Shown here: one piece after another, positions 144 through 20,936 of the stretch
Layout: each line of letters starts with the position of its first letter
Position numbering within the stretch: the stretch's first letter is position 1
Assembly: GCA_965233585.1 (NCBI GenBank)
Contig: CBDDTI010000451.1
Coordinates: 1 to 20,936, forward strand
Direction: 5' to 3'
DNA length: 20,936 nt
DNA from: a bacterium
GTDB lineage: Bacteria > SAR324 > NAC60-12
Notes under the pieces: generated by a model
What the model was told of the DNA's origin: nothing
Databases searched by the model: none
What the model saw: the letters and a program-made list of their open reading frames with translations, nothing else
Position numbers and translations under genes: made by a program

Positions 144-3100
144 GCCAGCTGCGGCTCCAGAAGCGGATGAAATGATCGTCGCCCTTGCGCTCAGATGGGC
201 CACGCTCCATGCGGTCACAGGTGGTGAGTGTGCTTTAAATTGGAGGATGGACCCAACAACTTGTCATTTGTATTGCGAAAATAGATCGGGATTCTAGGGT
301 CCCCTATGTGAGACAAATCGTACGGAGATGGTACCCAAAGAATTTGGTTGTTTTGGGGCAAAATAACCGAATTTGTGTGGTTCCCAGATCTGAAACTATC
401 CTTAACCCATACCCATACCAGCTCCCAGGTTGCCCCATGGCTGGCGCTTCTTTGATTTTGTAGAAGGTGCTTACCAACCATGCATGTCATAGGCTATAGA
501 AAATGACCATGGGGACATTGGCACAATCACTTAATGTGAGCTTACCAGCGTATAGTATCCCCCTCCTTATAATTAAAATACAAGATCCTTCAATATTTCC
601 TCCAGCCTTTGAGATTTAACATTTCAACAATATATCAACATCCATGATATCATAGTGATATCTCCTTTGTATCCCCAAACTGTTTGATCCCATCATGATG
701 CTCCAGGCCCAGTTGATCTCCATGGGCATCGGTGAGAATGCGGTGAGCATGGGCTCAGCCATGGGACTTGGGCCCTGTAAAAACTGTTTGGGGATGCACA
801 ATCTTCCTTGACATCCACTGAAGTTCACATATCATCCACGAAATCATGACTATTAAAAAGTGCAAAAGATCTATGAAATCAACATTTTTTAAAGGAATCC
901 CCGTTCCACGATTGGTCAAATGGTTCAACCCCCCAAAATTGTCCCCTCAATTTCAATGTCTTGCCAGGCCAAGCGTGCCAGCCTCGCCGTCAACAACTCG
1001 GGGGCCGAAGCAGCCTGCGCCTGGTGCCGGGGTGGGTGGTAGTGGACCCCATGCCTAAGTGTCCCAAGTGTCCCAAGAATGGTGGGGTTCATAGCAGGGT
1101 GACGTTTTGTGAGTCCCGTGCAGGTTCTTCGAACACAGTGAAGATCCAGACATCAATTTGCCGCCTGCTGCTGGACTGGCGGGCGATCGTCGGTTTTCAA
1201 ACGAGATTGATGCTGAAGTTTCCAGCGATTTTCGTCGCAGGAGCCCAACCTGCTGGTGACGCTGGGTCTGGATCTCAGCCGCAGCCAACAGTGACACCGG
1301 GGGATATCCAGAAACGCCCACAGGTTTGATCCTGAAGCAGTGTCCACGTTGTGCTCCATGGGCTTTGCAGAAGCCCATGTGCGAGCGGCCCTGAAGTCGT
1401 GCCTTGGCTGCTCTTGGACTTAGATTTGAGGCCCTCCAACAGATACATGCTATTTTGATCTATTCTGGATGGTGTGGTTTTGAGACTTGGAAAAAGTCTC
1501 CATGTTTCTTATACCGAACAAATCCATAGGAGGCATACAACCTCATAAATAACAGCTAAACAATTGTAATCATATATTATATATATATATAGAGATCTAT
1601 TTGCAAACAGAACATTCAATTCAGCGCACAAAGATGTACAAAAACAATGTTGTTTACCATGAAATGATAGGAATTGGAATCAATAAATGATCTGTCCCAA
1701 ACCTTGCCACCTGGCCCCATACCCAGGTGCATGAACAGTGTGGAGCGAGCGGCCGATTGGCCGGGGCCCCTGTGGCCAGGTGTCGCCCTGTGGGGTTCAA
1801 CGGTGTGGGGAAGTGAGTCATTCTGGTAGGGGCAACTCGTCCAAAGAAATGGCCCTTGTGCGGATTGGTGAATGATGAAGATGTGCACAGAATTTCAATT
1901 GCCGAATTTCGGCTAGATCGTAAAATTTAGTTGTCAAGTTGTGGACTGAGCATGTTTTGGCGCTTCAGGTTTTGGCTGCATGCCCAGCAAAAGCCAAATC
2001 ATATCTTCAACGCACTTCATCGCTCACATCTTCATGGCTCACATGGGAGGTTGCAGCAAAGAATCAACAGGTCCACATTTGGTTGATTCTTTTAGGTCAT
2101 TATGATTATCATGTCACCAGTTTTTGTTGGCAGCGTTCCAGCCCCAGATGGGTAGTTGAACATCATACTTGTATTTGCGACTGGGGCTTTATGTTGCCCT
2201 TTCAATGGTGCTTTGTACTGATGGGCTTGCAGTTCCATCCTACCCATGCAAAGAGCTTTGGGCATGTCCAAACCTATTGACAAGTCACCTTTAGGCTGGG
2301 TTTCCAGCGAACACCTACGGCGATGGAGATCCGGAATTCGTTGCTGATATTAGGCTGTAATTTTCAAGTCTCACATTGTTAGGCACTGCCACATACCCAA
2401 GCAATCCCCAAGGCAGGATGAACAAAACTGATATCGCCAACTGCCCGCTGTGCTCTGTGCCAACTGCCACCACGACGTCAACAACCGAAGGAACGAAGGT
2501 AGCATTGACCCATGGCCATTATCGATGGGTGTCCTACAATGACAAGCTGCGACAAGCTGCGACAATGCCAAAATATCTTTGCCATGGGACTTTTAAGGAC
2601 TTAATGCCTTCAATTGGAGTGGCACTTGCGTCGTCAAGAAGCACGCAGTCTACCTCCAGCGTGGCCAGATTGGCGGGTACCAAGAAAGACTGGTGCGATG
2701 GGTAGCCCATTGACATGGCCAACCGGCACTTCGCATCGCTCCTGCTTGTGCATTACTTGTCATTACTTCATCTTCGATAAATTATGTGTTTTGGAAGATT
2801 GTGGGTTCGATTGGTGCTAGGTATGAACAGCCATTGCTTCGTACTAGGGAAAGTTTCATTGATAATCACATTGATATTTGTAGCGGCAATCATCATCACC
2901 ACCACCACTACCAGCATCAGAATCAGCATCATCATCATCATCACCATCACCATCACCATCATCATCACCATCACCACTACCACCACCACTACCACCACCA
3001 CCATCATCCATCATCATCATCATGATCATGATCATGATCGTGGAAATCCTACAGGGACATGTCCATGAGCAACTGTTATTTGCGTGGTTGTCAGTACACC

Positions 3101-4670
3101 ATTTTGGTGTGGGTCCTTTCCCACGGCTTACCTCCCAAGGCTTTTCTCACACGCAGACGATCTGGATGCAGCCGTGGCTGCGGTGAATGGCAGTGGCACA
3201 GCGGTGGCTGGGCAAAACTCAGGGGATGACCGACTGATGACTGATTGCTGAAGGCTGGCAAGTTAAATCTTCAGAATCTACAGGGCTATATGTGGAAACC
3301 CGATCTCACCCTTGCTCCCTCGAGGGTCGGGATCTTTCCTGGCTAAACTTTAAACATACTTCCATTTTTTCACGAAGTGTGACATGAAGTTGGACATGGT
3401 TTTGCTCAAGAATTGAAGCGGACAAAACTCTCCATGGACAACGTGTCTTCCAGGGGTTGTTTCAACGCTATTTTGATCCATGGTGCAAGACAAAAAGTGG
3501 AAGTGTAGGCAACTCCTTGCCCATTCCATGAACCCCTAGAAATGTTCCCAAAAAACAACGATAAGACCAGCAAAAGATGGATTGTTTCCTGCCACCGTTG
3601 GGTTCAGTGCTCCCTGGCGCTCCAGGCCGGGCCGAGTCGAGTGGACAATGAAGATGGCGTGGGCGAGTGCCCAGCGATGATGCCTGTTGGAAGCTTCAAA
3701 CATCTTCAAACTAAAGATTGCATGAAAATGGATGAACTACTTGGCGTTTCATGGTTAGGCTGAATCTAGCATTGATTTTTTAAATGGGTTTACAGCAGCT
3801 GCCTACTGTTGATCTCAGCATTGCGAATTGGTGCAGTTTTCGAACAGAAGTGCGAGGTACGAACTCCTGGGGTTTGTGTCCCACATTGGAAAGCACACCT
3901 CTCATGGGCATTATGTTTGCCACATGCACTTCCCTCAGTCACTTGTTGTGGGACGCGGTATGTTAAATGCCTTTATGAAAGGCATCATGGCAACCCAACA
4001 GTGAAAGGTTCCAGCAAGGTTCCAGGACTGTTCCGGTTTTTCGGGGCGCCCGGCCCCAGAGACTGAAATGCAATAGATTCGCTGTTGGGAATAAGGATGG
4101 TTCAAAAAGACCGCAAGAAATAGTGATATTCATATGCCAATAATTACCCACGTTGTAGATCCCTTTGCGGCAACTGAGGCGACGGGGTGAGGGTGGCTCC
4201 TGGGTGATCTTTGATGATAGCAAGGCATGGGGTTGAGCCGCCGTCCCAAAAAATATGAATCAAAAAGTCTGCCAAGGTCGGATCTCCCGTAGCCCACAAA
4301 AGCCTAGCCTTCGATTAGCTCCCGCCAGGTGGCGAAATCCGAAGCTCCACCATTGGATTTGGGCCATCCCCTTAGAATGGAGAAAAAAAACATCCCTGAT
4401 GTGGACCTATTGAGCGGGCAAATTGTTGGCAGTTTCAACATCTTTCAAAGCTTGTTCATTTTGACTGGAAGCGATGCCAGTTTCAAGCAGTTGGCAAGCA
4501 TTTTGTTGGGAAACTATGTTCATTGGTTGGTGCTTACTACTTTGATTTGCCAGGTTATCTTTACCTCTATAGACGGAAGGACTTTTGGAGTTGCATTGCA
4601 CTTACTTGGCTTTGCTTTGAAAGTTTGGGAATTCAAAGCACAGCACCTTGAATGTTGAAAGGACGCCTGA
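144..4670 (+). CDS. UBP14: Ubiquitin carboxyl-terminal hydrolase of the USP5/USP13/UBP14 (isopeptidase T) type; 3' portion, multi-exon, 5' end outside the window
   Basis: Hand-spliced exons 144-180, 707-742, 968-1023, 1124-1173, 1241-1265 (end uncertain), 1324-1398, 1727-1759, 3140-3203 (end uncertain), 3626-3666, 3857-3925, 4179-4224, 4329-4362, 4554-4579, 4662-4670 join in frame. Translation: UBA1 (EMIVAQLISMGIGENAAKRASLAVNNSGAEAACAWFFEHSEDPDIN), UBA2 (FDPEAVSTLCSMGFAEAHVRAALKSCMNSVERAADWLFSH), His box (YELLGFVSHIGKHTSHGHYVCHM...WVIFDDSKV) and the typical C-terminus PPLDLGYLYLYRRKDA*. Two UBAs inserted before the His box are diagnostic of the USP5/UBP14 family. The last micro-exon (GA donor) is the least certain. 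Confidence 0.93.
2889..3038. repeat. (CAT/CAC)n trinucleotide microsatellite, ending in (CATGAT)n, inside the largest intron of the deubiquitinase gene
   Basis: About 150 bp of atc/acc/cac triplets seen directly. It accounts for the poly-His, poly-Thr and poly-Val/Met ORFs. Confidence 0.95.
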
Positions 4671-4942: not shown

Positions 4943-5077
4943 GAAGGAATTTTAGAAAACAAACTTTTACAATATGGGCAGATGAAAAAGCAAAGATGGG
5001 AAGAATTAGAGAAGAGACAGAAATAAGATTAAAAAGAGAAAGTCTCAGAAAAAAAGATCTAGGTGCGCGAAAAGGTA
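4943..5077 (+). repeat. 5' fragment of a purine-rich interspersed repeat (…gaaggaattttagaa…gatggg aagaattagagaagag…aggtgcgcgaaaaggta), apparently interrupted at a TA
   Basis: GA-rich degenerate sequence. From memory it resembles an abundant Symbiodiniaceae interspersed repeat whose continuation appears at 8559-8642. Not verified by a search. Confidence 0.5.
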
Positions 5078-5619
5078 CTGGGTAGTAGACCTTACTCGTC
5101 TTATTTTACGAGAAGTCGTTTCGCAATCGTCGTGCCTATGGGAAGTGCTGTTAGATACCTCATTCTAGATTCGTTATATGTTTTGGGGTATGTTGAATTT
5201 TTGATGCAAATCGTAATGGTACGATGCTTTGGACTGGGATTAGGATTTATTTAGGGAATTTTTATTCCTATAGGTCGTTTATATAGATAGTTTACTATTA
5301 TTAGACAAAAAGATTGCTAAATATAAAAATAATTTAAATCCTTTTAATGACATAAAAAGGAATGCCTTATATAGATGTATGATAGGACGTATCCCGAAGG
5401 TTTTTATTTTATCCTGAAGATTAAAATTCGTATCGTAATACCTTATATCCGCCGGAAATTTTATTATATACTCTTTTTTATTGAAGGCTTGAGGTTAATG
5501 ATTTAAATGTTACTTATATGATGGTTTTGAATAGGAAGTATATTGTTTTTTTTAAATAATGTTTATCGGGAGAGAAACTTCTGTTTTGCGGGGATTTAAT
5601 AGAATAAAGTATAGAAAAG

Positions 5620-5730
5620 GGTAGATTAGAGTAGGGAGGAGTAGAGTAAAGAAGAATAGAATAAAGTGGAGGTGAGTAGAAAAAATAAAATAAAGAAGAT
5701 TAGGGTAAAATAGAGAATTTATAGGAAAGG
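5620..5730 (+). repeat. Degenerate (GAGTA/GAATA)n pentanucleotide simple repeat
   Basis: gtagattaga gtagggagga gtagagtaaa gaagaataga ataaag… seen directly. Confidence 0.6.
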
Positions 5731-5963
5731 AAAGTATATGAGTAGAAATTTATAGGTTTTGTTTTGTTTTTTGGATATGTTATTTTAAATTTTATTATTT
5801 AATAAAAATATAAATTTGGATTAATTATATTTTTTATAATAATTTAATTTTTTATTTATTATAAATTTAATATATTATATTTAGAATAATTCGGAATTTA
5901 TAGTATAATATTATTTAAAATTATTAGTTAATTATTATATTTTTTAATAAATATAGAAAAATG

Positions 5964-6756
5964 TTAAATTCGAGGTATTTGAGCTTATATTCGTGGTATT
6001 TGAGGCTGAAGATTTATGAATACTTAATATACCCGGTTACCGTTATTATAAATAATTAGACTAAAATATATTAAAGTAATAATATATTAAAGAGGTTGAA
6101 AAGATTTAAATACAAAATAATAATAGGAATTTTATTTTAAAAAAAAAAAAATTGAAAAACTTATTTTGCTAGGATTAAATTTGGATTTATGCGGGTTAAT
6201 TCTTTTTAAATATTTTTTAATAAGATAAATAAGGATAGTGTATTATTAAATGTACATATAAGTTATCTATATATACTTCCCGAAGACCAACCTTATTATT
6301 GTTAGTAACTCTAAATATTTGATGGCCTGTTGGGGGGCATGGTATTTGCCGGTTGCACCCGCCAGGTTTTGGATATTCTTAAGAGGACTTGTGGAAAAAG
6401 CAAGATAATGATTGGGTTCCGTGTAGATTACACCATGATGGGGTTTATTTACGAATTCCGTACAAGTAGCATGTACCGTGGTGGTGGGTGACTGGCTTGG
6501 TATTTTTGTTCAGTATTTGGCTTCTGAAGGTATAGAATTATATTTCTGTTAAATCAAAGGTAAATGTAACCAATGCTAGCTATCTGTGGGACCCTTAAAA
6601 TCGGAGCACATATAAGATACCTTGCCTGAAGATCTATGGACATATTCCCAAAAAATCGATGTATTTGCTTGGTTTTTCTTCCTCAAAAAGGTGTTGGCCA
6701 TGTGAGAAGTAACATAAGATATCAATAAATATTTGTAATTTTCCCAAAATACCGGT
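5964..6756 (+). repeat. Left arm of a ~0.8 kb long inverted repeat (pairs with 7461-8308)
   Basis: Aligns as reverse complement to 7461-8308 throughout, e.g. 6588 gggacccttaaaatcggagcaca vs 7606 tgtgctccgattttaagggtccc, and 6351 ggttgcacccgccaggttttggatattcttaagaggacttg vs the 7888-7928 region. Confidence 0.95.
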
Positions 6757-7467
6757 GGACATTTGGGATTCGAACTTCCCAAAAAAAAAACATGCACATG
6801 TTGGGAACTTCCTTAGAAAATCGATGCACGTATTGGGAACTTCCCCAAAACAAAATAGCGGCGCGCATGTTGAGAACTCCATCAGAAAATCTATGCAAAT
6901 ATTCGGAACTTCCCAGCAAAATGGATGCGCATGTTGTGAACTTCTGCCAGAAATTGATAGACACGTTGGTAACCCCCTCTATATATCGATGGACATCTAG
7001 TTGGCAATTTTCGTTCAAAAATGATGAACACGTAAGGAGTTTCCCCGGAAAATCGGTTTCCACATGTTGGGAACTTCCCCAAAAATAGCGGCGCACATAT
7101 TGGGAACTTCCGCGGAAAATCGATGCACATGTGGAACTTTCCGCGGAAAATCGATGCACATGTTGCGAACTTCCACCAAAAAATCAATGCACATTTCGGA
7201 ACGGCACCAAAAAATCAATGCACATTCTGGAACTTCCCAGAGAAGTCGATGCACCGGACGGGCTCGGGTGCATTGATTTTTGGGATTGACGCTGACCTGG
7301 TCCGAGGCGGAGTCTTTTCGCTATTTTTCGGTTTAAACCTATCTTGTGCATTGATTTTGGTTCACCACCCCTTAAACAAAATCAATGAATGCACCGGACG
7401 GCGGGGGGTGCATTGAAAACCATTGATTTTGAGAGGGGGGTGTTATTTTTATAATGGTGAACCGGTA
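6030..7467. mobile_element. Putative non-autonomous TIR DNA element (~1.44 kb), TA-flanked, with an internal tandem array
   Basis: The left end tacccggttaccgttattataaataa (6030) resembles the reverse complement of the right end ttatttttataatggtgaaccggta (7443-7467; rc taccggttcaccattataaaaataa). Both ends terminate in TA. No transposase ORF inside. Confidence 0.5.
6757..7255 (+). repeat. Tandem minisatellite, ~30-36 bp unit (aaaatcgatgcacatgttgggaacttccc-like), roughly 13-15 degenerate copies
   Basis: The cores gatgcaca..tgggaacttcc recur at about 6792, 6823, 6893, 6924, 7063, 7094, 7122, 7153, 7187 and 7218. Confidence 0.9.
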
Positions 7468-8308
7468 TTTTGGGGAAGTTCCAATGTTTATTGATATCTT
7501 TTGCTACTTCTCATATGGCCAACGCCTTTTTGAGGAAGAAAAACCCAGCAAGTACATCGATTTTTTGGGAATATGTCCATGGATCTTCAGGCAAGGTATC
7601 TTACATGTGCTCCGATTTTAAGGGTCCCACAGGTAGCTAGCATTGATTGTATTTACCTTTGATTTAACAAAAATATAATTCTATACCTTCAGAAGCCAAA
7701 TACTGAACAAAAATGCCAAGCCAGTCACCCACCACCACGGTACATGCTGCTTGTGCGGAATTCGTAGATGAACCCGTCATGGTGCAGTCAGTCTTTACGG
7801 AACCCAATCATGTAAGTAGATTTTTTGTTGAAAATTGGCAGGTACATCCTTATTTTTTTTTCAATTGATGTTATCTTGTTATTTCGACAAGTCCTCTTAA
7901 GAATATCCAAAACCTGGCGGGTGCAACCGGCAAGTGCCATGCCCCCCCACACCTAGGCCATCAAACACTTGGAGTTGCTGACAGTAGTGAGGTTGGTCTT
8001 CGGGGGATGGCTTGTATGCACTTGGTTTGATAATATACGGTTCTTATTTATCTTATTTAAAAGGAATTAACCCGCATGGATTCAAACCTGATCCTGACAA
8101 GGTAAATTCTTCCAATATTTTTTTTAAAATAAAATCCCTATTATTACCTTGGTGTTTGAACCTTTTCAACCTCTTTGGTGGACTATTGTTTTAGTCTATT
8201 TTAGTCCAATTACTTATAACACCGATAACCGGATGGAAGGTCGATATCAGAAACGGCAAATGTTCAGCCTCAAATACCACGAATATGGTTTCAGATACCT
8301 CGAATTTA
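7461..8308 (-). repeat. Right arm of the long inverted repeat; carries a ~60 bp segment (about 7811-7870) absent from the left arm
   Basis: Reverse-complement match to 5964-6756. Both arms end internally at ACCGGT (6751-6756 and 7461-7466). Confidence 0.95.
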
Positions 8309-8767
8309 AAATAAAAATAATTTACTAATTTTAAAGGATTTATTTTTTTATTTATATTAATTTTAATAATATTTTTTTTATATAATATAAAAATATAAAA
8401 ATTAAAATAATCGATATTATAATATTTAATTAATTTTTTATATATATTATGTAATATAATAATTTCTTAATATTGGGTAATTTTTGAATTTTATTTTATA
8501 TTATATGTTTTAATAAAATAATTTTATATTAAAAGAAATATAAAAAATTATCTATTTATAGGAAAATTCCGAAAAAAGGATTTTCTTCAATCTATGGCTC
8601 TAGAGGGTCGAAAATTACGATTGTTAAAGGTGGATGCGGAATTATTATTATATATAATAATATAAAATATATTTTTTAATTAAAAATATTAAAAAATAAA
8701 AAATATTTTTAGAAATGAAAATTTAATTTTAAATTAAAATTATTAATAATTATTTTATTTTGAGTAA

Positions 8768-9645
8768 TTCCCAATATAATATTTGTTATTTTCTTACCCG
8801 TATTTTTTTTGATATATGTATTTTTTTAAATTTTTACCAATTTATGAGGTATATTTTTTGGCATTCGATCTGGTATTTTTTTATATATTTGACAAATATT
8901 TCGAATTTATGTTGGAATATTTATAATGTTCCACTTGATATCTCAATACTTATTTTAGGTGGTATACCTCCATATATTTAATTTAACATAATTTCTAATT
9001 TTTTATTTAAAATTTGATTTTCTGACATCCTATTTAATATATTTTTTGATATTTTGTCTGGCATATTTTCTGGTATTCTATTTAAGATGGTTTCTGACAT
9101 TTTATTTGGTATCGCTTCTGACATTCTACCTGGTATATTTTTGGCACATATTCTGACATATTTTTTGCTATTTTATTTAATATCTATTTGTCGTATTTTT
9201 GGCATATCATTTGATATATTTCCTGAAATTTATTTGACAAATATTTTGATATTTTATAGAAAATATTTTGAAATATTTTATTTGATATTTTTTATGGCAT
9301 ACGATTTGGAATCTCTTCTGGCATTCTATCTGGCATATCCTCTATTTTTTTTGGTATATCATGAGACAAATTTTCTCGGATTTTATCTCGTATATTTTTC
9401 CGTGTTCTTTCTGATATTCTATTTTGGTATATTTTCTGGAATTCTATTGAGGTCCAGTTGTTCGCATTGACTTGGGGAGGTCTTAGGGTGTGGTCCAGTA
9501 GTGCGTATTCAGCTTCGAAGTAGGCAGGGATGGTAAAAAAGAAGAACACGGACCAGGAGGAGGAGGGAAAAAGAAAAGGAGGACACGGGGGAGGAGGAGC
9601 ACATCTCTGATAAAATTTAATAACCCTCAGCCGGCAGGCAAGGAA
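8768..9645 (+). mobile_element. Interspersed repeat element with an internal 12-bp-period minisatellite (tctggcat/tctgacat units), a gaggtccag motif region and a GGA-rich tail
   Basis: ctgacat/ctggcat units recur at about 9020-9445, followed by gaggtccag, ggtccagtagtgcg, (gga)n and ataaaatttaataaccctcagccggcaggcaaggaa. The element starts ttccc and ends aggaa (possible very short terminal inversion). The minisatellite is seen directly; assignment to a common Symbiodiniaceae repeat family is from recollection only. Confidence 0.65.
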
Positions 9646-11990: not shown

Positions 11991-12849
11991 TTTTTTGAAA
12001 AAAAATTCGACTTTCGGTGCGACAATTGTCAGACGTCCAAAATTCCTGGATGTGTGTCCGGTGCAGCTAGGTGGCCTGATTAGTTAGTTACTGGGAAAGA
12101 ATGGGCAAATCAAAATACGCATGGAAATCTGGGCAATTCATTTGGGCAATTTCAAACCACACCCATCAGGCCAATACAAACAGTGTTTGTTTCCAAACAG
12201 AGCTGAAAAAAATTAGCTCGTTGCTGAAAAGGCTTGTGTGTCAACCAAATGCCATAGAAAGATTCGTATCCAAGAGCTTCGCTGTCTCAACGGCGAATGA
12301 AACATGATTCAACGCATTTCTGTGAATAATCGACGCAGGCGAATCCAAAAACTTAACCGAGGCGAATCATTCGTACAAAATGAACGATTTTTCATTCTTT
12401 AATCCATTGTACGTAGTTGATTGGGAGCAAGCTTTTCCGTATCCAGGAGGCACAGCGATACACATCCAGTAAGGATGAAATTTCAATCCCTGACCCCTAA
12501 TGCCTGGAAAAAAAGAAAGTCCTTGTGCGCGACTTTATAAAGAATCAATATGTGCACCTTGGCAACTAGCCCGCTGCAATGTCTGTGTTTCATGTGCAAA
12601 GATTTGGAACAAAGTCAGAAAAGGGCCCAATTCAGAATATCATCTCCGGCAGGACATTTTACGTATTGAGAGTCTGCATGCTTTTTTTCACATGAAGAAA
12701 CCTGAAGCAAACCTTGTTCCTTCCCATCAGTTGCGACAAGATTTCCAATGTAAATTTCTTTTTAAATGGAAGGTAACAAGAAATTTGATCTGCGATTCGA
12801 ACGTATATATGTATGGGTTAAATTGATGGAAATATTTGTCAAGACATGG

Positions 12850-14330
12850 AAGATATCTAATTCTTCTTTAAAAAAAATAAATTTCCTATTTTTTTCTATA
12901 AATAAGGAACATTTGGAATTTATATAATTCAAGAATCATAAAACGACAATTTTTTTTTTTTGAAAAAGTAGAGGAATAAATATAATTTAAATATATATAT
13001 AAAACAAAAATTTATAAATAAATATTTTTTTTCAAATATAAATATTTAATATTATATTTTCAAAATACCAGGGCAAGATTTTCCAATCCCAATAATTTTG
13101 AAATAATTAGATATACCTCTATAAATATCGAATATATCGATAAAAAAATAATCAATTAAATAAATTTCAGAAAATTATTTTATTTTAAAATAATTCCAAT
13201 AAGGGTAAGTAAAATTTATATGCCGGAAAATTTCATAATATTTTTTTTAATTCAATAATTAAAAAATACATTATAATTAGGTTATATTTATAAAGTATTA
13301 TTTCGGTATATATATATATTTTTTAATATATTTTTTATTTAAAATTAAAATCAAAATAAAATATATAATAAATAATAAATAACATTTAATTTTTTTTAAA
13401 ACAATTATTTTTAATAATTAATATAAAATTATTTTTATTTAATTTTTATATTAAAATTATTTATTAATTTAATAAATTTTAATATATTATACGAAATAAT
13501 ACCTCGGTTAAGGACAAATTATATTTTATAATTTAAATCCATATATTTAATAATATATAATTTTTTTCTTTATAATTAAAAAATACATATATTATTTTGG
13601 AAAATAAATACCTTTATTCGACGTCAAAAAAAAGAAAATCCATTATAATTATTCCCAATATATTATAATTCCTATTCAAATAATTAGAAAAAAAGTAAAA
13701 TTAATAACCACAATCAAAAAAAAATCAAATAGTAAATATCATATTTACGAAAATTATTTCCTATAAATATAAAATTTCAAAAATTAATATATTTCGAAAA
13801 ATTAATAGCAAAAATTCGACCCAATAACATACAAGAAAAATGTTATTTAAAAGCAAGGATCAACCCCAAATACTTTAAAATAATTATTTTACTAATAAAA
13901 TAAACATTAACAAGCAAAAAACGGGCATTATTTCCAATTAACGATATTTCCATAACGATACTTCGGGTTACCTTAGAACCTTCGGGTAATCTTAAGGCCT
14001 TAAAGTCTCCTTTAATAAATTTTAGGATTATATAAATAGGATCTTAAATCGATTTACCGAGTTCTAAAAAAAAATCAAATTTATAATATAAAAATATTTT
14101 TTAATATTAAAAATATTATTTTATGTAATTCTAGGATAGTAATTTCAGCTAGGTTTCCATCCTTCCCTTTACTTCGTAAAATAAAATCAAAGTAGTAGTC
14201 CATCAGGAGCTATTTTTTTATAATATAATAAAAAACGAATTAAATAAATAAAAAAAAAAAATAAAAAAAATCATAAAAAACTAAAATATACGAAGAAAAA
14301 CTAGGATAAAGAAGTAAAAATAACTAAAAA
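12850..14330. other. Extremely AT-rich degenerate tract (eroded repeat DNA) with residual CpG-containing words
   Basis: Long A/T runs. CG words (tcga, acga, ttcgg, ccgg) survive while CA/TG are scarce. No ORF of 60 aa or more in the track. Confidence 0.85.
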
Positions 14331-14344
14331 ATTAAAAGGAACCT

Positions 14345-14525
14345 AAATAAACTGAGACAAGCAAAGATGAACAACCGAGAAGAGTTAAGAAGAGCTAAGA
14401 TAAGTTAAGAAAATGAGCTGAGGAAAAGATGACTTAAGTAAGATGAGCTGCTGCGATAAGCTAAGCAGGGGTCAAATAAGCTCTGAAGAATTAAGAAGCT
14501 GTGAGAAGAGCTGAGCTGAGCTGGT
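14345..14525 (+). repeat. Degenerate gagaagagct/gatgagctga 10-bp-period repeat
   Basis: gaga agagttaaga agagctaaga taagttaaga aaatgagctg… gagaagag ctgagctgag ctgg seen directly. Confidence 0.75.
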
Positions 14526-14627
14526 TAAGGTCCTATAGAAAGAGCACAATCCTTTCTGATATTCCTTTTAGAGAGAGCAATCCTTTCTGATATGTTATTT
14601 TTTGATGATTCATTAACTTTAATTTAA

Positions 14628-17600
14628 TTATAAACCAGTATCTTCGGCCTTTGCGCAAGTTGATTTGTCACATTCAAGTTGCCAAACCGAAATACAATTT
14701 CATGCAAGCCAATGCAAAGGTTACCATCCACATCAGCATGGGGCACTGCAGCGATCTGAAGCTGATGGCAAGCATAAATGAGCAACATCTAGGCTCCTGA
14801 CCGCTTCGCCCAACCTTTCACTAATCCACACCAATAAGCACATGTTTAAAAGCAAACAGAGACACGTGAGATTGACGCGTTGAACGGACAATTTCTATGC
14901 GGCCAAATCAAGAAGCGCTCTTGCTGAATCGCCAAGAACGATGTGAAAACCACGAGAAGAAACACTCCTCACATCTCCTCACTGGAAGAGTGACATGCGG
15001 TGACATGTGCCCTTGCCTTTGCAGAGCCGCATCGCGGTCCAAGCCGTCTAACAAGGCAGGAAGTAGAACTGCAGACACCTGGCGCTTCCAAACAAATTAA
15101 GCACCTGAAACGTGACACTCTGCAACACCATGTTCAATCTGTGCAAATTGGCAAACTGAAGTGGAAAAATAGCAAGCTTTCAACAAGAAACTTTCAAAAC
15201 GTTGAAACCATTACCCACTGAGCATCGCACGTAGAGCGCTACACCAATGCCTGTGATCAATGGAAGAGTGGCCTGGCGAATCTGCAGGAAGCTGTGAATC
15301 CTTCGAGGCTAGGAATGCCACGGTGCACGGTGCCCACGGTTCCCCATGGCCTCGTAACTGGCGCCGCCCGCCAGCTCCACGGCCAGGACGACTGAGGTGA
15401 TGGGCACCTGAGCCGATGCCCTGTTGGTCACAAATTGGACTTTTGATGAAACGTGTTTAGGATTGTTTAATATTGTTTAGTATTGTTTAGTATTGTTTAA
15501 TATTGTTTAATATTGTTTAGTTGTTTTGGTTGAGAAATTGATATGTGTTTAATTGATGTTTTCAATTCTGTCTAGTCATGGTTTGTATCAAGTGCTTTCT
15601 TCAGTGTAAAATGCGAAAATCCGTCGTTTAGTGAGGCCGAAAGCAACTCAGTCGCCCGCACTACAGTTCGCAGCCAGCATAGATGCCATGCCAACAACAA
15701 TATAAGTTGTGGCTGCCTGTGAAAGCTGTGCCCCAGACCACAGGACCATCATGGACCATCCAAAACGTCGAGGATTTCATTCTCCAATCACAATGCAGGA
15801 GTTTTTAACAGATGGGCTGCGAGGCAATCCGCTTTCGCCAAGTTGCCGAGTGGGCGATGGCAGCCCCCTGAAGTCGACAGCTCGCGACTCACCAAGGCTC
15901 AACGTCCCCAACTTGCATGTGGCCACATGTCAGGACAGTGCCCCAAAACAGTTTCCTTTTGTCAGGTGAGCCCTGCTTTATTTCACTGAACTTTTATGCA
16001 AGAATTTCCACTTTGGAACAAGATGAACAAGACTTCAACATCGCCAATTCGTTGCCTCTATCATGCGACCCAGCGCGCCACCAAGGCAGGCTCCGATGTA
16101 AATGGACGGAGCGAAGGTTCCTGTCATCGATCCAATCTCTTCTGTTTACTGTCGGATTCTCTGGCAGCCAAGTTCGGCTGGTGGACATGCGGCTGGTGAG
16201 CTGGCTTGAGTGGAAATGAATCAATGGAAACGAATTAGCCTGCCTCCAACTAGACCACTGACTGAAGAGAAGGCAGTGGAAAAAATCTTGAGCACCTTGA
16301 GTGACTGGAAACCAGATGGATAACACATAATAAAACATGATAAAACTACAATGCTGAACCCGATTGGGAGCCCAAGCCATTAGGGCCAGCAGCGGCGCTG
16401 CACCGAAGAGGCCAATGGAGCCACGGTTCTGGCGGTGCAGCACCAGAGCACCAAATCTGCAAATAAAATCACAAAAATTCTCATGTTTCTCATCCAATCC
16501 TGCAGCTTGACGAACTCACCGATTCTTCCGGCCATGGGCCATTGGCCATCTTACTTCACCTTGTTCCTTTGTACTTCCCTAATCACTTCCATTCTTATCC
16601 TGCCTCGATCAACGGTGCTAGCGACAGGTTGGATGCTGCTTCACCCAATGGCTCAGAGGCATCGCGCAGCACCTCATTCACTGCCTTGGCGATGCAACGT
16701 CTTAAGGGTCAGGAAAGACCTAGAGACACGTGGGAAACACACGGGCTTGAGCTGCAAAAAAAATCATTATTCAATTTCATGGAAAATGAACCTTTTGCCA
16801 AACATCTTCTTATCCATTTCCAGGGTCAATCTGCTTGTATTGGACATGTTCCTCAATTAGGTGCCATGAAACTGGAGGTTTCGCTTAGGAGATCTGATCA
16901 TCTTCATCATCTTCTAATCAACACCTGCTGTTTTAGGGTCAACAACTTGCCTTGGCTCCCAAACGCCGAAGCCATCGAACTGGACACGGGCGCGCGTGAG
17001 CAAAGAGATGAGGACCGTCACGAGCGCACCTGCCTCAGTGCAGGTGACACACGGTGATTGATCCGACCGATCCAAGTGATCCAACCTGCTTTGCATTGTG
17101 AGGTTGTACCAGGTTGACTCTTTGATGTCCTCATACAGCAAAAACATAACACGTTTTTTTTCCAGAAATCACACTTGGACATGAGAAAAGGGCAAAAAGC
17201 CGCACTTTCCAAACACTTCAAATGCTGCTGTCACCTGGGAAATCTGGGCTCCGCACGATGGGTAGCCAAATGTTAGGTACTCCTTGATCTGTCACCCAGG
17301 TGATGATATCGCGGCTTGAAGCCACGATCTTCTTGTAGCCATAGGCAATCATTCCTGGCTGGTGGTATCAGAGCTTTACTGTTTGAACAAATATGGCAGA
17401 TACCAAAAAATTGCAGTTGCCGAACGTTGTAATCTTATTTGAGGTGGGAAGCAGCGTTTTGGAAGACGTTTCGAGCTGCGGAAGTTCTTACAACTGAACT
17501 TCAAGCCTGTGAGGACACCCAAAACGATGAAGAAGAACAACTCCTTCCGAGGTTAACACAGAAACTACAGCCGTAGCCACAAAATCAAAGGTGTGAAGGG

Positions 17601-18410
17601 AGCTCGCGCAAGCTGTGCAAACATCTCAAGCTGGACAGTGACTAGCGTATAGCGTGACTAGTCCAAATGTTGCCTCACCTGAGGGCCCAGCGCCGTTCCC
17701 TCCGTCCCAGGAGAAGTTCGTGGTTTTGATGGCGGGGCCGCCCTTAGTCAAAATGGGACTTGGGCCATGTGGCCATGTGGCCATGCTGTTTTATGTTGAC
17801 TCCATGGCCTCTGGGTACCGCGCCGGTAGAAAGGATTGAACCACAGCAGCGCTCACTGCTGCTGCAAGCAGCCTGGACAGTTTATGAAACAAGCGTCATC
17901 AAGTGTCATGGTGGACAACCAAACTGCGTGGGTATGGTGATTTCGAGACAAAGCTGGGCAGAATGCTGCACCCTTATTGCCCATGATATCCATGGGGCTG
18001 GAAAACACCATTCAACTCCCATTGCTCCCGTTGCTTCATTTTCTCACCTTGTTGTGAGATCCAGGGAGTTGTCGTCACCTGGTCTAACGACCTGCACAGC
18101 GGTTGGACCTCACCAAGCTTTGCACTTACTCTCAGTGAGCCGATTACGATCCAATCTGCAGCAAGCCTATCATTTTTATATATTTTTGTTCATTTTTGAG
18201 GGCAACTCAACGAAATAGGGTCATTTGCCTGCTGGTGCCTTGCCTCTGAAGCAAAGAAAATACCCGCAATGGGTGCATTGAAACCTCAAACCGCCCAGGT
18301 CAACGACATCGGAGCTGCGGGAAATGCTATGCGAAATTCTCAGCTTCACACCTGCTGCAACGCCGGCAGCAGCGCCAGAGGCCAGAAGAGCATCTGGATT
18401 TTGATTTATC
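14628..18410 (-). CDS. CLC-family chloride channel/transporter, prokaryote-like (plant CLC-e/CLC-f type), helices G to Q; no CBS domains; helices A-F not found in the window
   Basis: Hand-spliced exons 18410-18352, 18284-18244, 18091-18048, 17872-17824, 17742-17692, 17543-17507, 17354-17257, 17033-16965, 16684-16604, 16428-16378, 16295-16244, 16120-16056, 15867-15847, 15716-15660, 15407-15351, 15272-15231, 15078-15017, 14814-14787, 14648-14628 join in frame. Motifs: LLASGAAAGVAAGFNAPIAGIFFASEVV, ELFFFIVLGVLTG, LKIFSTAFSSVSGLVGGTFAPSIYIGACLG, YIVVGMASMLAANCSVPITSVVLAVELAG, ATLPLI. The last two exons, 15867-15847 and the start of 16428-16378 are less certain. Confidence 0.9.
15454..15520 (+). 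repeat. 10-bp tandem repeat (tattgtttag/tattgtttaa) x ~7 in a CLC intron
   Basis: Seen directly. Confidence 0.9.
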
Positions 18411-19304
18411 CTCCGCCCCACAACTGTCTGCGATGAAGTCATGCAATGAAAGGAAGATGTTTGAACTGATTGAATAGCTCAAATAGCAGCTAACATTTAT
18501 ACTGGTTAGATATTTCCAACTGGAGTGCTTTTAAGGTGAAATAGAGCCGCGAATGTCAGGCAAAAACACAATGGTCACGCAGCGAGCACACTGGAGAAAT
18601 CAACGGAGACTTTCTCATCAATGAAATTATGAACTGTGAATGATGTAAATCAACAATTGATAATGATAATGAAACAAAACATAATCAACCATAATGCAAA
18701 CTGCATGTTTCAACAAAGGAAATGCGTAAAATAAACTGAACAAATAGACATCAATCATCAATTGCCAAAACAGCAAACTATACAACACCTTCAGAAAAAA
18801 ACACTGAACAGTAGGAAAACAGACAAGACACACCGAAAAATGCGGTGGAAGCAAATAGTTCGGACATCTAGGCAGTTTTTTTCTTGAGACATTTTGGCCT
18901 AAACCGCGAGAAGAAAAGGACAACTGCGGATTTTTTTGAAACGAAAGGAAAACACGAACACCGAGGACATAGTTACTTAGGTGTGCAAATCAGCAAACCC
19001 AATTCTCACGCGACAACTGTGACAAACAATCCAAATACCATGAATATTGCAATGCCGTTTTTCATCTTGGCATCATGCCCAGACCCACGAAAGCATCACA
19101 CTAGCAATGTCCGGCCAATAAAGAATTCAAACAATCCCCAGAACTTTTTGTTTCACTTATTTTCTTCACATCCTCATTTTCACCCTTTCTCCCCTATTTC
19201 CCGAGGTGTCTTTTTGAGTTTTTTTTAGCTGCGCCCCAAAAAAATGGGGAAAATCCGCCATTTTTTCGGAGACGGGAAAACCCCCACAGAACTGAGCTCT
19301 TCAC

Positions 19305-20785
19305 CTCGCCATGGATCCTTCGGATCGTCCACCGCAAGCCTCGAAGGAACACCGATCCACGCTGAGCAACACCGCGTCGGTGCGTGCCTGCGACATCAAC
19401 AGAAACCAAAAAAAACTTGGGATTTCGAAATTTGACTTTTTTGATCTTTAGCCAAAAGGGCAATTTAACCATCAAACATAGGAATTGTTCCAGTGCAGGT
19501 TATGTCAAAATGGGCGATAATGTATCAATTCATTGGCAACATGATGAAAAACCATTGGATCTTGAAGTGACCTATTTTCAAACAAACCCACATCTGGAAT
19601 GGAATGACTACCAACAAGGGAGAAGCATTGGGGTGCAGTTCCAGTTCTAAGTTGTTTATAGAACCATAGTTGTAGGGGTTAGACAATTATCTCCCATCTT
19701 ATGTCTGTTAGAATCCCATAGTGATAGCCATTTGCTTCACCCCCCACTTTTCTGACCTCGCTTTTCTTGCGAAATCCTGCAGGGATTCCTGGGATTCCTA
19801 TTTTCAACACTCAAAAAACCCATGGGACAACGGGATCGCCTTCACCGTGGCAGCTCGTGGTGCCCTGAACAGCACGGCCAACTCACCCACCACTTGACCA
19901 CTCTCCTCATAGGCGAAGACCTGCCATGGCAGCCATGGCACATCATGGCACCAAAAAAGGGAGTACCTTTATGGACCCAACGGTTTGGATTTCAGTCTTT
20001 AGATGTATTTCGTATCATCTTTGTATCTAAATTATTATCAAACATAATCTTTTTGGGATAAAAATTGTCTAAATGATTAAAGATCCATGTTTTTTTGCGG
20101 CAAATCTTGAGCCATTCCCAACTCAGAGCTGGGCGGATTCATCCAAGCCTTTTTCTCTTGGCCGCCATCTGGGACATAGACATCCAGCTCCCCAGTTTTC
20201 CTGTGGCACAATTTTTCCGGATTTCTGCTGCTTTTGACCATGTGATCTGAAATGGTTGCATCTCTAGTTTGATGATGTTTGATGTTTGATGTTTCTTTTA
20301 CATGTAAAATAAACATCCTGTTTGATGGAAATGATGTCTGAGTCACCAGGGTCACCCAACGCCATCCCGAGACGCCGGGGTTTTCTATGTCCAAGGCTCG
20401 TGACGAAGAGGCCTGGCTCATCATCTGCCACCTCGGCCGCGGCACCACATGGCATGTGCTGTACCACTAATGGCCTCGATAAATGCCCTGGCTCTTGAGA
20501 CTAATGATGAAGCATGATAAAGCTAATCAAGCTAATTATCACTGCTTTGACAGGTCACCGGTTGACATATGTTGACATCTTTATATGGGAAGTTGGAATT
20601 CAGTGAATTCAGCATGGAGGTGCATCTCCAGGAGTATATAACCAAGTAAGCTGCAAGGATCGAAATGACAACGATCCGTGGTCCAGAACCACCACATCAC
20701 CACAGCAATGAGTTGAATCTGCTCCACTTGTGGCACCCGCCTGATCTCCATGTTTCATCAAATTGTCGCCTGCCTTGATCCGAAC
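19305..20785 (-). CDS. Cyclic nucleotide-binding domain (CNBD, PKA-R/PKG-like) exons; gene start outside the window, 3' continuation unresolved
   Basis: Exons 20785-20741, 20431-20400, 20200-20149, 19920-19840 and 19387-19340 (or to 19305) splice in frame to VRIKAGDNLMKHGDQ VADDEPGLFVTKTGELDVYVPDGGQEKK VFAYEESGQVVGELAVLFRAPRAATVK ARTDAVLLSVDRCSFE. This has an intact phosphate-binding cassette (GELA…PRAATV). A further exon near 20890-20936 is possible. Confidence 0.88.
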
Positions 20786-20936
20786 CTACCACTGCGGCAC
20801 ACCGGCAAAATCTTGTTTTTTTTTGCACTGTAAAAGCGACACTTTTTCTGCTTGGCTTCATAATGCTTCTAACCCGAAAGAATATGAACCATGGCCCCCA
20901 TGGCGGAGTATCTTTGTATCATCCCTGAGGACAAAT

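Follow-up and report, generated by a model that had tools for sequence, protein, structure and literature searches.

The minus strand of contig C451 (CBDDTI010000451.1) carries, from position 20785 to 14628, what is very probably the 3' two thirds of a single Cladocopium nuclear gene for a CLC with an inserted cyclic-nucleotide-binding domain (CNBD). The contig comes from an assembly of 12.0 Mb in 747 contigs that is filed as a bacterium, and was analysed at its whole length of 20,936 nucleotides (nt), which we call the window. The encoded protein has 690 or 691 residues and consists, in this order, of a presequence, CLC helices B-F, a CNBD of about 150 residues and CLC helices G-R. Dinoflagellates really have this architecture; it is expressed and conserved among them and has a single origin. 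An original prediction, made from the letters of the window alone, had proposed that the CNBD exons splice in frame into a CLC at the junction of helices F and G; transcript-derived contigs and annotated proteins demonstrate that this junction is used.

The junction is found in L004, an intronless contig of 2150 nt from a scan of metagenome contigs, which encodes the 690-residue protein P0156 exactly and without interruption. L004 matches the window in 24 colinear blocks, the 24 exons of our gene model, with three mismatches over 1282 nt, and it contains the predicted 19305>18410 junction at base level: its positions 1079-1164 lie on 19389-19304 of the window and are directly followed by positions 1161-1224 on 18413-18350. 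The phase compatibility pointed out earlier takes the form of an arginine codon split AG|G over an intron of 894 nt, and the junction peptide DRCSFEACGGRSEGSMARINQNPDALLASGAAAG occurs letter for letter in P0005 and in P0155 of Cladocopium goreaui, and with one change (S>L) in the Effrenium model P0004. The interval that had been singled out, 18352-20785, is bounded by exon ends: the contig's first exon starts at 20785, and the helix-G exon finishes at 18352. As the prediction had held, 18411-19304 contains no exons for helices A-F (only a five-residue seed, GLFVT at 19032-19018, appeared there, a chance match that repeats residues encoded at 20431-20399), and no CNBD exon with a stop is found in the window. 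L004 begins with CTCAAG, 54 nt before the ATG; we take these to be the last six letters of the dinoflagellate spliced leader, which hints that the transcript may be trans-spliced.

Related proteins repeat this layout. The spliced translation of the window is identical at 419 of 420 positions to P0156, at 417 of 420 to residues 272-691 of P0005 and at 415 of 420 to P0155 from C. goreaui, which identifies the source as a Cladocopium close to C. goreaui. The cluster of P0005 at 90% identity has 34 members; 11 among the 15 listed have 690-692 residues, and of these full-length members ten are encoded on contigs of 2114-2159 nt, the other one being the C. goreaui genome model. Transcripts of the MMETSP collection that are marked 'complete' display the same order of CLC, CNBD and CLC.

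The first 271 residues of P0005 are not encoded in the window. Of the alternatives raised with the prediction, the one that stands is that the CNBD interrupts a complete CLC that starts outside the window: helices B-F are encoded upstream in the same frame, and a second genomic contig carries them as well. This independently assembled contig of 32.6 kb is represented by two parts, L007 and L006. L007 has 15 exons for positions 5-703 of the complementary DNA (cDNA), which encode the N-terminal part of the CLC, and the same 24 exons as in the window lie on L006, about 10-10.5 kb downstream. L006 is colinear with the window from 20936 to 14400, introns included, at 93-95% identity, with a single gap of 69 nt missing from intron 5 (19290-19222). 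Judging by the spacing of L007 and L006, C451 ends 151 nt upstream of exon 1 (20786-20936, intron up to the contig end) at a long intron or a repeat-rich gap. Exons for cDNA 704-868, covering the linker and the start of the CNBD, are absent from the window and from the examined parts of L006 and L007, and presumably lie in the remaining part of the 32.6-kb contig.

These data bear on two rival readings of the locus. A CNBD gene followed by an N-truncated CLC gene, or one nested within an intron of a CLC gene, would fit the absence of a start and of helices A-F from the window and the same-strand arrays in which dinoflagellate genes are arranged. Against such a pair of genes, the cDNA contigs and all 23 family proteins scanned have a single open frame through CLC helices B-F, the CNBD and CLC helices G-R, and there is no CNBD exon with a stop; we regard the pair as extremely improbable. 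The N-truncated fusion (by L004 and the colinearity of L006 and L007) and the nested gene (by the single frame of L004 and the same colinearity), both listed with the prediction, were rejected. The other rival is an assembly chimera joined at the repeat-like interval 18620-19280, which would be in keeping with the contigs of sequencing run X1, broken at 18164/18169 and 18762/18781 with doubled depth in between. However, L006 is colinear across the interval except for the 69-nt indel, the cDNA joins exons on both sides of it, and the same protein is found in the C. goreaui genome annotation. The colinearity of L006 excludes a chimera, and misassembly at this interval, also among the earlier alternatives, is ruled out by L004 and by L006 and L007; we give it practically no credence.

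In run X1 itself (taken as DNA, its kind not being on record), 18169-18781, with exons 6 and 7 and part of intron 5, has a word depth of 137 against about 70 on the flanks, and three variants occur at 18135-18198, near the contig break. This points to a second copy or shared segment of this piece of about 600 nt elsewhere, not found in the bin.

The same layout characterizes a whole family. A region search with residues 215-420 of P0005, spanning the end of helix F, the CNBD and helices G-H, returned 21 clusters at 58-100% identity, 20 of which carry both precomputed Pfam domains, while the truncated model P0187 is listed with Voltage_CLC only. The named members come from Cladocopium goreaui, Symbiodinium microadriaticum, Symbiodinium sp. 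KB8, Symbiodinium sp. Y106, Durusdinium trenchii and Effrenium voratum; Fugacium and Breviolum are represented by partial models, and the other members are transcripts from MMETSP, JGI and Logan; those from MMETSP and metatranscriptomes are 58-73% identical. In all 23 family proteins scanned with Pfam, cNMP_binding directly precedes positions ~80-345 of the Voltage_CLC profile. A HMMER pass over 1.84 billion representatives matched 6642 proteins, and among the best 150 of these the inserted layout was limited to P0006, P0007 and the partial P0002. Of 154 proteins collected, the match was confined to the C-terminal CLC part in 102 and to the CNBD in 39. For a tree we used 40 CLCs, 19 with the insert and 21 without it (the latter chosen from the top matches by length), over 484 columns from which those of the insert had been removed. 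The 19 inserted CLCs all fall on one side of a branch with an SH-aLRT support of 100, with the uninserted P0011 as neighbour; since they form one clade, a single insertion event suffices. Public databases already list the proteins, with automatic names only ('CLC-E', 'cyclic nucleotide-binding domain-containing protein'), and full-text literature searches found no description of a CNBD-bearing CLC of this layout.

In P0005, Pfam places cNMP_binding (PF00027) at residues 272-358 with 42 bits (cut-off 27.5), and the scores are 38-53 bits in 22 of the 23 family proteins scanned and 23.7 bits in the truncated P0187. The closest relatives of known structure are the domains of apicomplexan PKA-R and PKG, and the insert is, as judged from its sequence, a complete CNBD of the PKA-R/PKG type. 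Its phosphate-binding cassette GELAVLFRAPRAATV has the Glu and the Arg of the GELA...PRAAT type in all 19 aligned family rows. Its RAAT form is like that of PKA-R, which hints at cAMP as the ligand. Mean pairwise identity among 15 members is 0.90 in helices G-H and 0.89 in the cassette, the two most conserved stretches, followed by beta-8/alpha-B (0.70), the C-linker and the membrane helices (0.59 each), the rest of the CNBD (0.54), the N-linker (0.26) and the presequence (0.09). The N-linker is variable and of about 30 residues, and a short conserved linker, GGRSEGSMARINQNPD, follows the domain, 16 residues joining the CNBD to helix G. From these identities, the CNBD hangs on a loose N-terminal tether and is tied tightly to helix G at its C-terminal end.

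The remainder of the protein is, we are confident, a CLC anion channel or transporter of a prokaryote-like, AtCLCe-like branch. Voltage_CLC (PF00654, cut-off 24.8 bits) scores 188 bits in P0005 and 188.9 bits in P0155; in P0005 its positions 83-345 align at residues 370-662, and a second CLC stretch is N-terminal. NCBIfam gives only sub-threshold matches to bacterial ClcA/ClcB models. As the prediction had noted for the window, CBS domains are lacking, in this case from all 23 family proteins scanned with Pfam, and the frame ends 29 residues after helix R. The N-terminus of P0005 is a weakly conserved presequence with hydrophobic stretches at residues 5-22 and 47-66; this two-part hydrophobic character and the likeness to AtCLCe are the grounds for a guess that the protein is targeted to the plastid. 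Next come helices B-F, in which GSGIP is replaced by AGTDIK and GREGP by GPEAP, both sites lying upstream of the window. The gating glutamate is kept: GPEAP aligns with GREGP of ClC-ec1 and is invariant in the 18 family rows that cover the site. Furthermore, GTFAP of exon 17 aligns with GIFAP of ClC-ec1 and GGASYE of exon 20 with its Y445. ASEVVRP aligns with IIEEMRP, which places a Val, conserved in the family, at E203, the proton glutamate. Val at this position occurs in channel-type CLCs, and it makes a channel-like or weakly coupled mode appear more likely than strict 2Cl-/H+ exchange.

The feasibility of the insertion depends on the side of the membrane on which the F-G loop lies. The prediction had taken this loop to be cytoplasmic, and support is available from ClC-7: according to a preprint, its F-G loop encloses the headgroup of PI(3,5)P2, which is made in the cytosolic leaflet, and mutations in the loop reduce inhibition by this lipid (10.1101/2025.10.01.679551). 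A cytoplasmic CNBD at this place is therefore topologically sound and at a known regulatory spot. UniProt annotates CLC helices G and H as a re-entrant pair, which together with the ClC-7 evidence speaks against a topology that has the loop outside. According to another report, helices F and G both belong to the ion pathway, and F carries the gating glutamate (PMC13088963). In the mechanism that we propose, the CNBD would lie on the cytoplasmic (or stromal) face, where CBS-bearing CLCs have their CBS domains, and cAMP or cGMP would bind at its phosphate-binding cassette, which is intact. Binding would move the beta-8/alpha-B hinge, the short linker would carry this motion to helix G, and helix G, packing on helix F with its gating glutamate, could in this way switch transport on or off.

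Control of the CLC by a cyclic nucleotide (cAMP or cGMP) seems to us its most likely function, on a balance that is close, because the cassette is among the best-conserved stretches. The fuller proposal is a dinoflagellate CLC anion channel gated directly by a cyclic nucleotide, with the sensor in the cytoplasmic F-G loop beside the helix of the gating glutamate and in place of the CBS domains, which would couple the flux of chloride or nitrate, perhaps across a plastid membrane, to cAMP/cGMP signalling in coral symbionts. This we put forward tentatively, being slightly more inclined to doubt it in its entirety than to accept it. No other CLC is known to us that has a ligand sensor within its membrane domain.

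Several observations weigh against gating of this kind. After beta-8 only a short SFEAC precedes the linker GGRSEGS, whereas PKA-R-type relatives run about 30 helical residues further; the alpha-B/alpha-C lid is thus much shorter and the usual lid mechanism cannot apply unchanged. This truncation, and the moderate Pfam scores of the domain, would also fit a reading in which the gene model is right and the CNBD, having lost its response to cyclic nucleotides, serves in structure or in protein interactions, for example as a stand-in for the CBS pair in dimerisation or docking. The cassette nevertheless keeps the ribose-binding Glu and the phosphate-binding Arg, and its conservation, close to that of helices G-H and far above the rest of the CNBD, is the pattern expected from selection for ligand binding, which argues against a non-sensing module; we consider such a module unlikely, if a serious competitor. 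The central serine of the helix-D motif GSGIP is not conserved. The Thr of AGTDIK aligns there, in an alignment of only 4-5 bits, and the central serine position is probably a Thr; with the serine missing and the alignment weak, anion selectivity is not fixed by the sequence.

A further point concerns expression of the window copy itself. No spliced contig was seen over 14400-20936 in the RNA runs X15, X17 and X18, whose contigs (depth 2-12) are colinear with the genome, presumed introns included, and give no verdict on splicing or expression; joints were absent from all of these runs and from X1. Expression of the exact allele consequently rests on near-identical cDNA contigs from other data sets. 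It could be that the window holds a silent paralogue or allele and that the transcripts come from another near-identical copy. Besides the RNA runs, this would agree with the twofold depth of 18169-18781 in run X1, which hints at a second copy, and with the lack of a full match among the compared transcript proteins, the window departing from each of them at one residue or more (R for C at position 238 of its spliced translation). On the other hand, the frame is intact over 24 exons, splice sites are usable at all 23 introns and the mismatches to the cDNA are as few as given above, so that a silent copy appears improbable. A blastn search with 14400-20936 found no second copy on other contigs of the same assembly.

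Among CLCs of known structure, the best matches of the inserted family are ClC-ec1 and Synechocystis Sll0855 rather than animal CLCs. The Symbiodinium orthologues bear the automatic NCBI name 'CLC-E'. AtCLCe is described as keeping the gating glutamate and lacking the central serine and the proton glutamate (PMC4746265). The inserted CLCs resemble it, as far as that description goes, in keeping the gating glutamate without the central serine and the proton glutamate (PMC4746265). They differ from the AtCLCe so described, with its C-terminal CBS region, in having no CBS domain and a CNBD in the F-G loop (PMC4746265), and they keep the central tyrosine where a Thr is reported in AtCLCe, a protein compared here by description only (PMC4746265). 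Among the eukaryotic CLCs that are regulated from the cytosolic face, ClC-7 is comparable in that its F-G loop has a role in ligand-dependent inhibition (10.1101/2025.10.01.679551). Unlike in ClC-7 and the CBS-bearing CLCs, a whole domain of ~150 residues occupies this loop and splits the membrane domain into B-F and G-R, and the presumed ligand is a cyclic nucleotide, as opposed to an adenine nucleotide or a lipid.

HCN, CNG and MloK1 are familiar examples of a membrane transport domain with a covalently attached PKA-R-like CNBD, through which a cyclic nucleotide can gate transport (for MloK1, PMC2233883). In these proteins the CNBD is C-terminal to a cation pore or exchanger, whereas in the inserted CLCs it is internal and the pathway is the anion pathway of a CLC. 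SLC9C1 likewise belongs among the cyclic-nucleotide-modulated cation channels and transporters. The inserted CLCs are not members of the HCN, CNG or MloK1 families, and the likeness would be one of working only. P0094 (757 residues, from a contig of 2831 nt) also combines Voltage_CLC and cNMP_binding in one protein, but there the CNBD is C-terminal and preceded by a CBS domain, and identity in the CLC part is no more than 27-33%; it looks like an independent fusion. P0015, P0018 and P0026 are related algal-type CLCs without the insert and with a C-terminal EF-hand, and these EF-hands and the C-terminal CNBD of P0094 are other unusual regulatory add-ons in the same branch of CLCs.

In the literature consulted, the regulatory domains described for CLCs are C-terminal CBS domains, and their control of the common gate is still debated. 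A natural CLC in which a well-understood CNBD of the PKA type is wired to helix G would offer a ligand-switchable test of how cytoplasmic motion reaches the gating glutamate. If the proposal is true, cyclic-nucleotide signalling is tied to anion transport in the Symbiodiniaceae, the symbionts on which reef corals depend and whose ion and pH handling is poorly known. The layout itself is common to many dinoflagellates.

The gene model itself (Table 1) was obtained by placing residues 272-691 of P0005 on the minus strand with exact seeds and a splice-placement script that favoured GT, GC or GA donors with AG acceptors; placements shifted by 1-3 bases fit equally well, a common situation at junctions. 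It has 24 exons of 13-98 nt, the first five of which hold the CNBD part present in the window, and 23 introns of 67-894 nt. The donors are GT in 7 introns, GC in 15 and GA in one, the GC and GA types being characteristic of Symbiodiniaceae, and every acceptor is AG. The GC content is 0.565 in the exons and 0.441 in the introns, the spliced frame is open for 420 codons up to its TAA, and L004 runs on to 14611 as 3' untranslated region. Pfam run on six-frame minus-strand translations, with stops as X, detected a single weak CLC exon match (13.7 bits); it failed because the exons are too short, single exons of the window reaching 13.7-18.3 bits against Voltage_CLC. A 45-residue read-through of a CLC exon (16157-16023, minus strand) matched Symbiodiniaceae proteins, including P0005 (691 residues) and an Effrenium voratum model, each of which has Voltage_CLC as well as cNMP_binding. 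Intron 19 contains a 10-nt tandem repeat, TGTTTAGTAT, at 15454-15521 (6.8 copies), which draws unrelated contigs (loose ends, in all four runs).

Table 1. Exons of the CLC gene with inserted CNBD in the window, in order of transcription, and the intron at the CNBD-CLC junction.
Feature	Position	Strand	Content
Exon 1	20741..20785	-	Residues 272-286 of the 691-residue protein; start of the CNBD beta-roll, VRIKAGDNLMKHGDQ
Exon 2	20400..20431	-	CNBD, VADDEPGLFVT
Exon 3	20149..20200	-	CNBD, KTGELDVYVPDGGQEKK
Exon 4	19840..19920	-	CNBD, phosphate-binding cassette GELAVLFRAPRAATVKA
Exon 5	19305..19387	-	CNBD beta-8, short alpha-B, conserved linker GGRSEGSMA(R); donor GAG|GTGAAG
Intron 5	18411..19304	-	894 nt, longest in the window, T-rich
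Exon 6	18352..18410	-	End of linker and CLC helix G, (R)INQNPDALLASGAAAGVAAG; acceptor GGAG|GAT
Exon 7	18244..18284	-	CLC helix H, FNAPIAGIFFASE; next residue is Val at the proton-glutamate position
Exon 8	18048..18091	-	VVRPGDDNSLDLTT
Exon 9	17824..17872	-	Helix I
Exon 10	17692..17742	-	I-J loop
Exon 11	17507..17543	-	Start of helix J; two substitutions relative to P0005
Exon 12	17257..17354	-	Longest exon, 98 nt
Exon 13	16965..17033	-	Helix K; one substitution (R for C)
Exon 14	16604..16684	-	
Exon 15	16378..16428	-	
Exon 16	16244..16295	-	Helix M
Exon 17	16056..16120	-	Helix N, GxFxP motif (GTFAP)
Exon 18	15847..15867	-	21 nt
Exon 19	15660..15716	-	Helices O/P
Exon 20	15351..15407	-	Helices Q/R, central tyrosine (GGASYE)
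Exon 21	15231..15272	-	Helix R
Exon 22	15017..15078	-	C-terminal tail
Exon 23	14802..14814	-	13 nt
Exon 24	14628..14648	-	Last six codons, AEDTGL, and TAA at 14630-14628

C451 is nuclear DNA of Cladocopium that was mis-binned into a bacterial genome, in a contig that ends inside the CLC gene. Near-identical DNA is found in coral-metagenome runs and in runs of several coded organisms, 16 of the 24 listed runs containing half or more of the sampled words; the RNA runs with a small share carry no information on habitat. In 653 contigs out of 747, which add up to 7.08 Mb of the 12.0 Mb, open frames of at least 100 codons cover less than 60% of the sequence, and from this low cover a large part of the bin is not bacterial; much of the bin may be contamination from dinoflagellates or other eukaryotes. 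The case shows a 'bacterial' assembly that is largely eukaryotic DNA. A tblastn search found no N-terminal CLC exons on other contigs of the same assembly, and the sole other CLC in it is a bacterial one, on contig C747.

Elsewhere in the window, an open frame at 3813-4001 on the plus strand has an exon match to the ubiquitin C-terminal hydrolase family UCH (PF00443) of 24.4 bits against a cut-off of 23.9, a sign of a USP-type gene that would run towards the CLC gene from the opposite strand. An inverted repeat pairs 6408-6756 with 7811-7461 at 91% identity and 5961-6408 with 8312-7871 at 75% (overall 5961-6756 and 7461-8312), and flanks a tandem array of about 14 copies of a 32-nt unit at 6792-7254; the whole of 5961-8312 may be a transposon or a foldback element. 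Very AT-rich stretches at ~5000-6500, 8000-9500 and 12500-14500 have a GC content of 0.16-0.26, as against about 0.45-0.50 in the gene regions, and these intergenic stretches resemble those on many other contigs of the bin. A microsatellite of (ATC)n / (CATCAC)n occupies about 150 nt at 2889-3039, and similar arrays occur on many of the bin's contigs.

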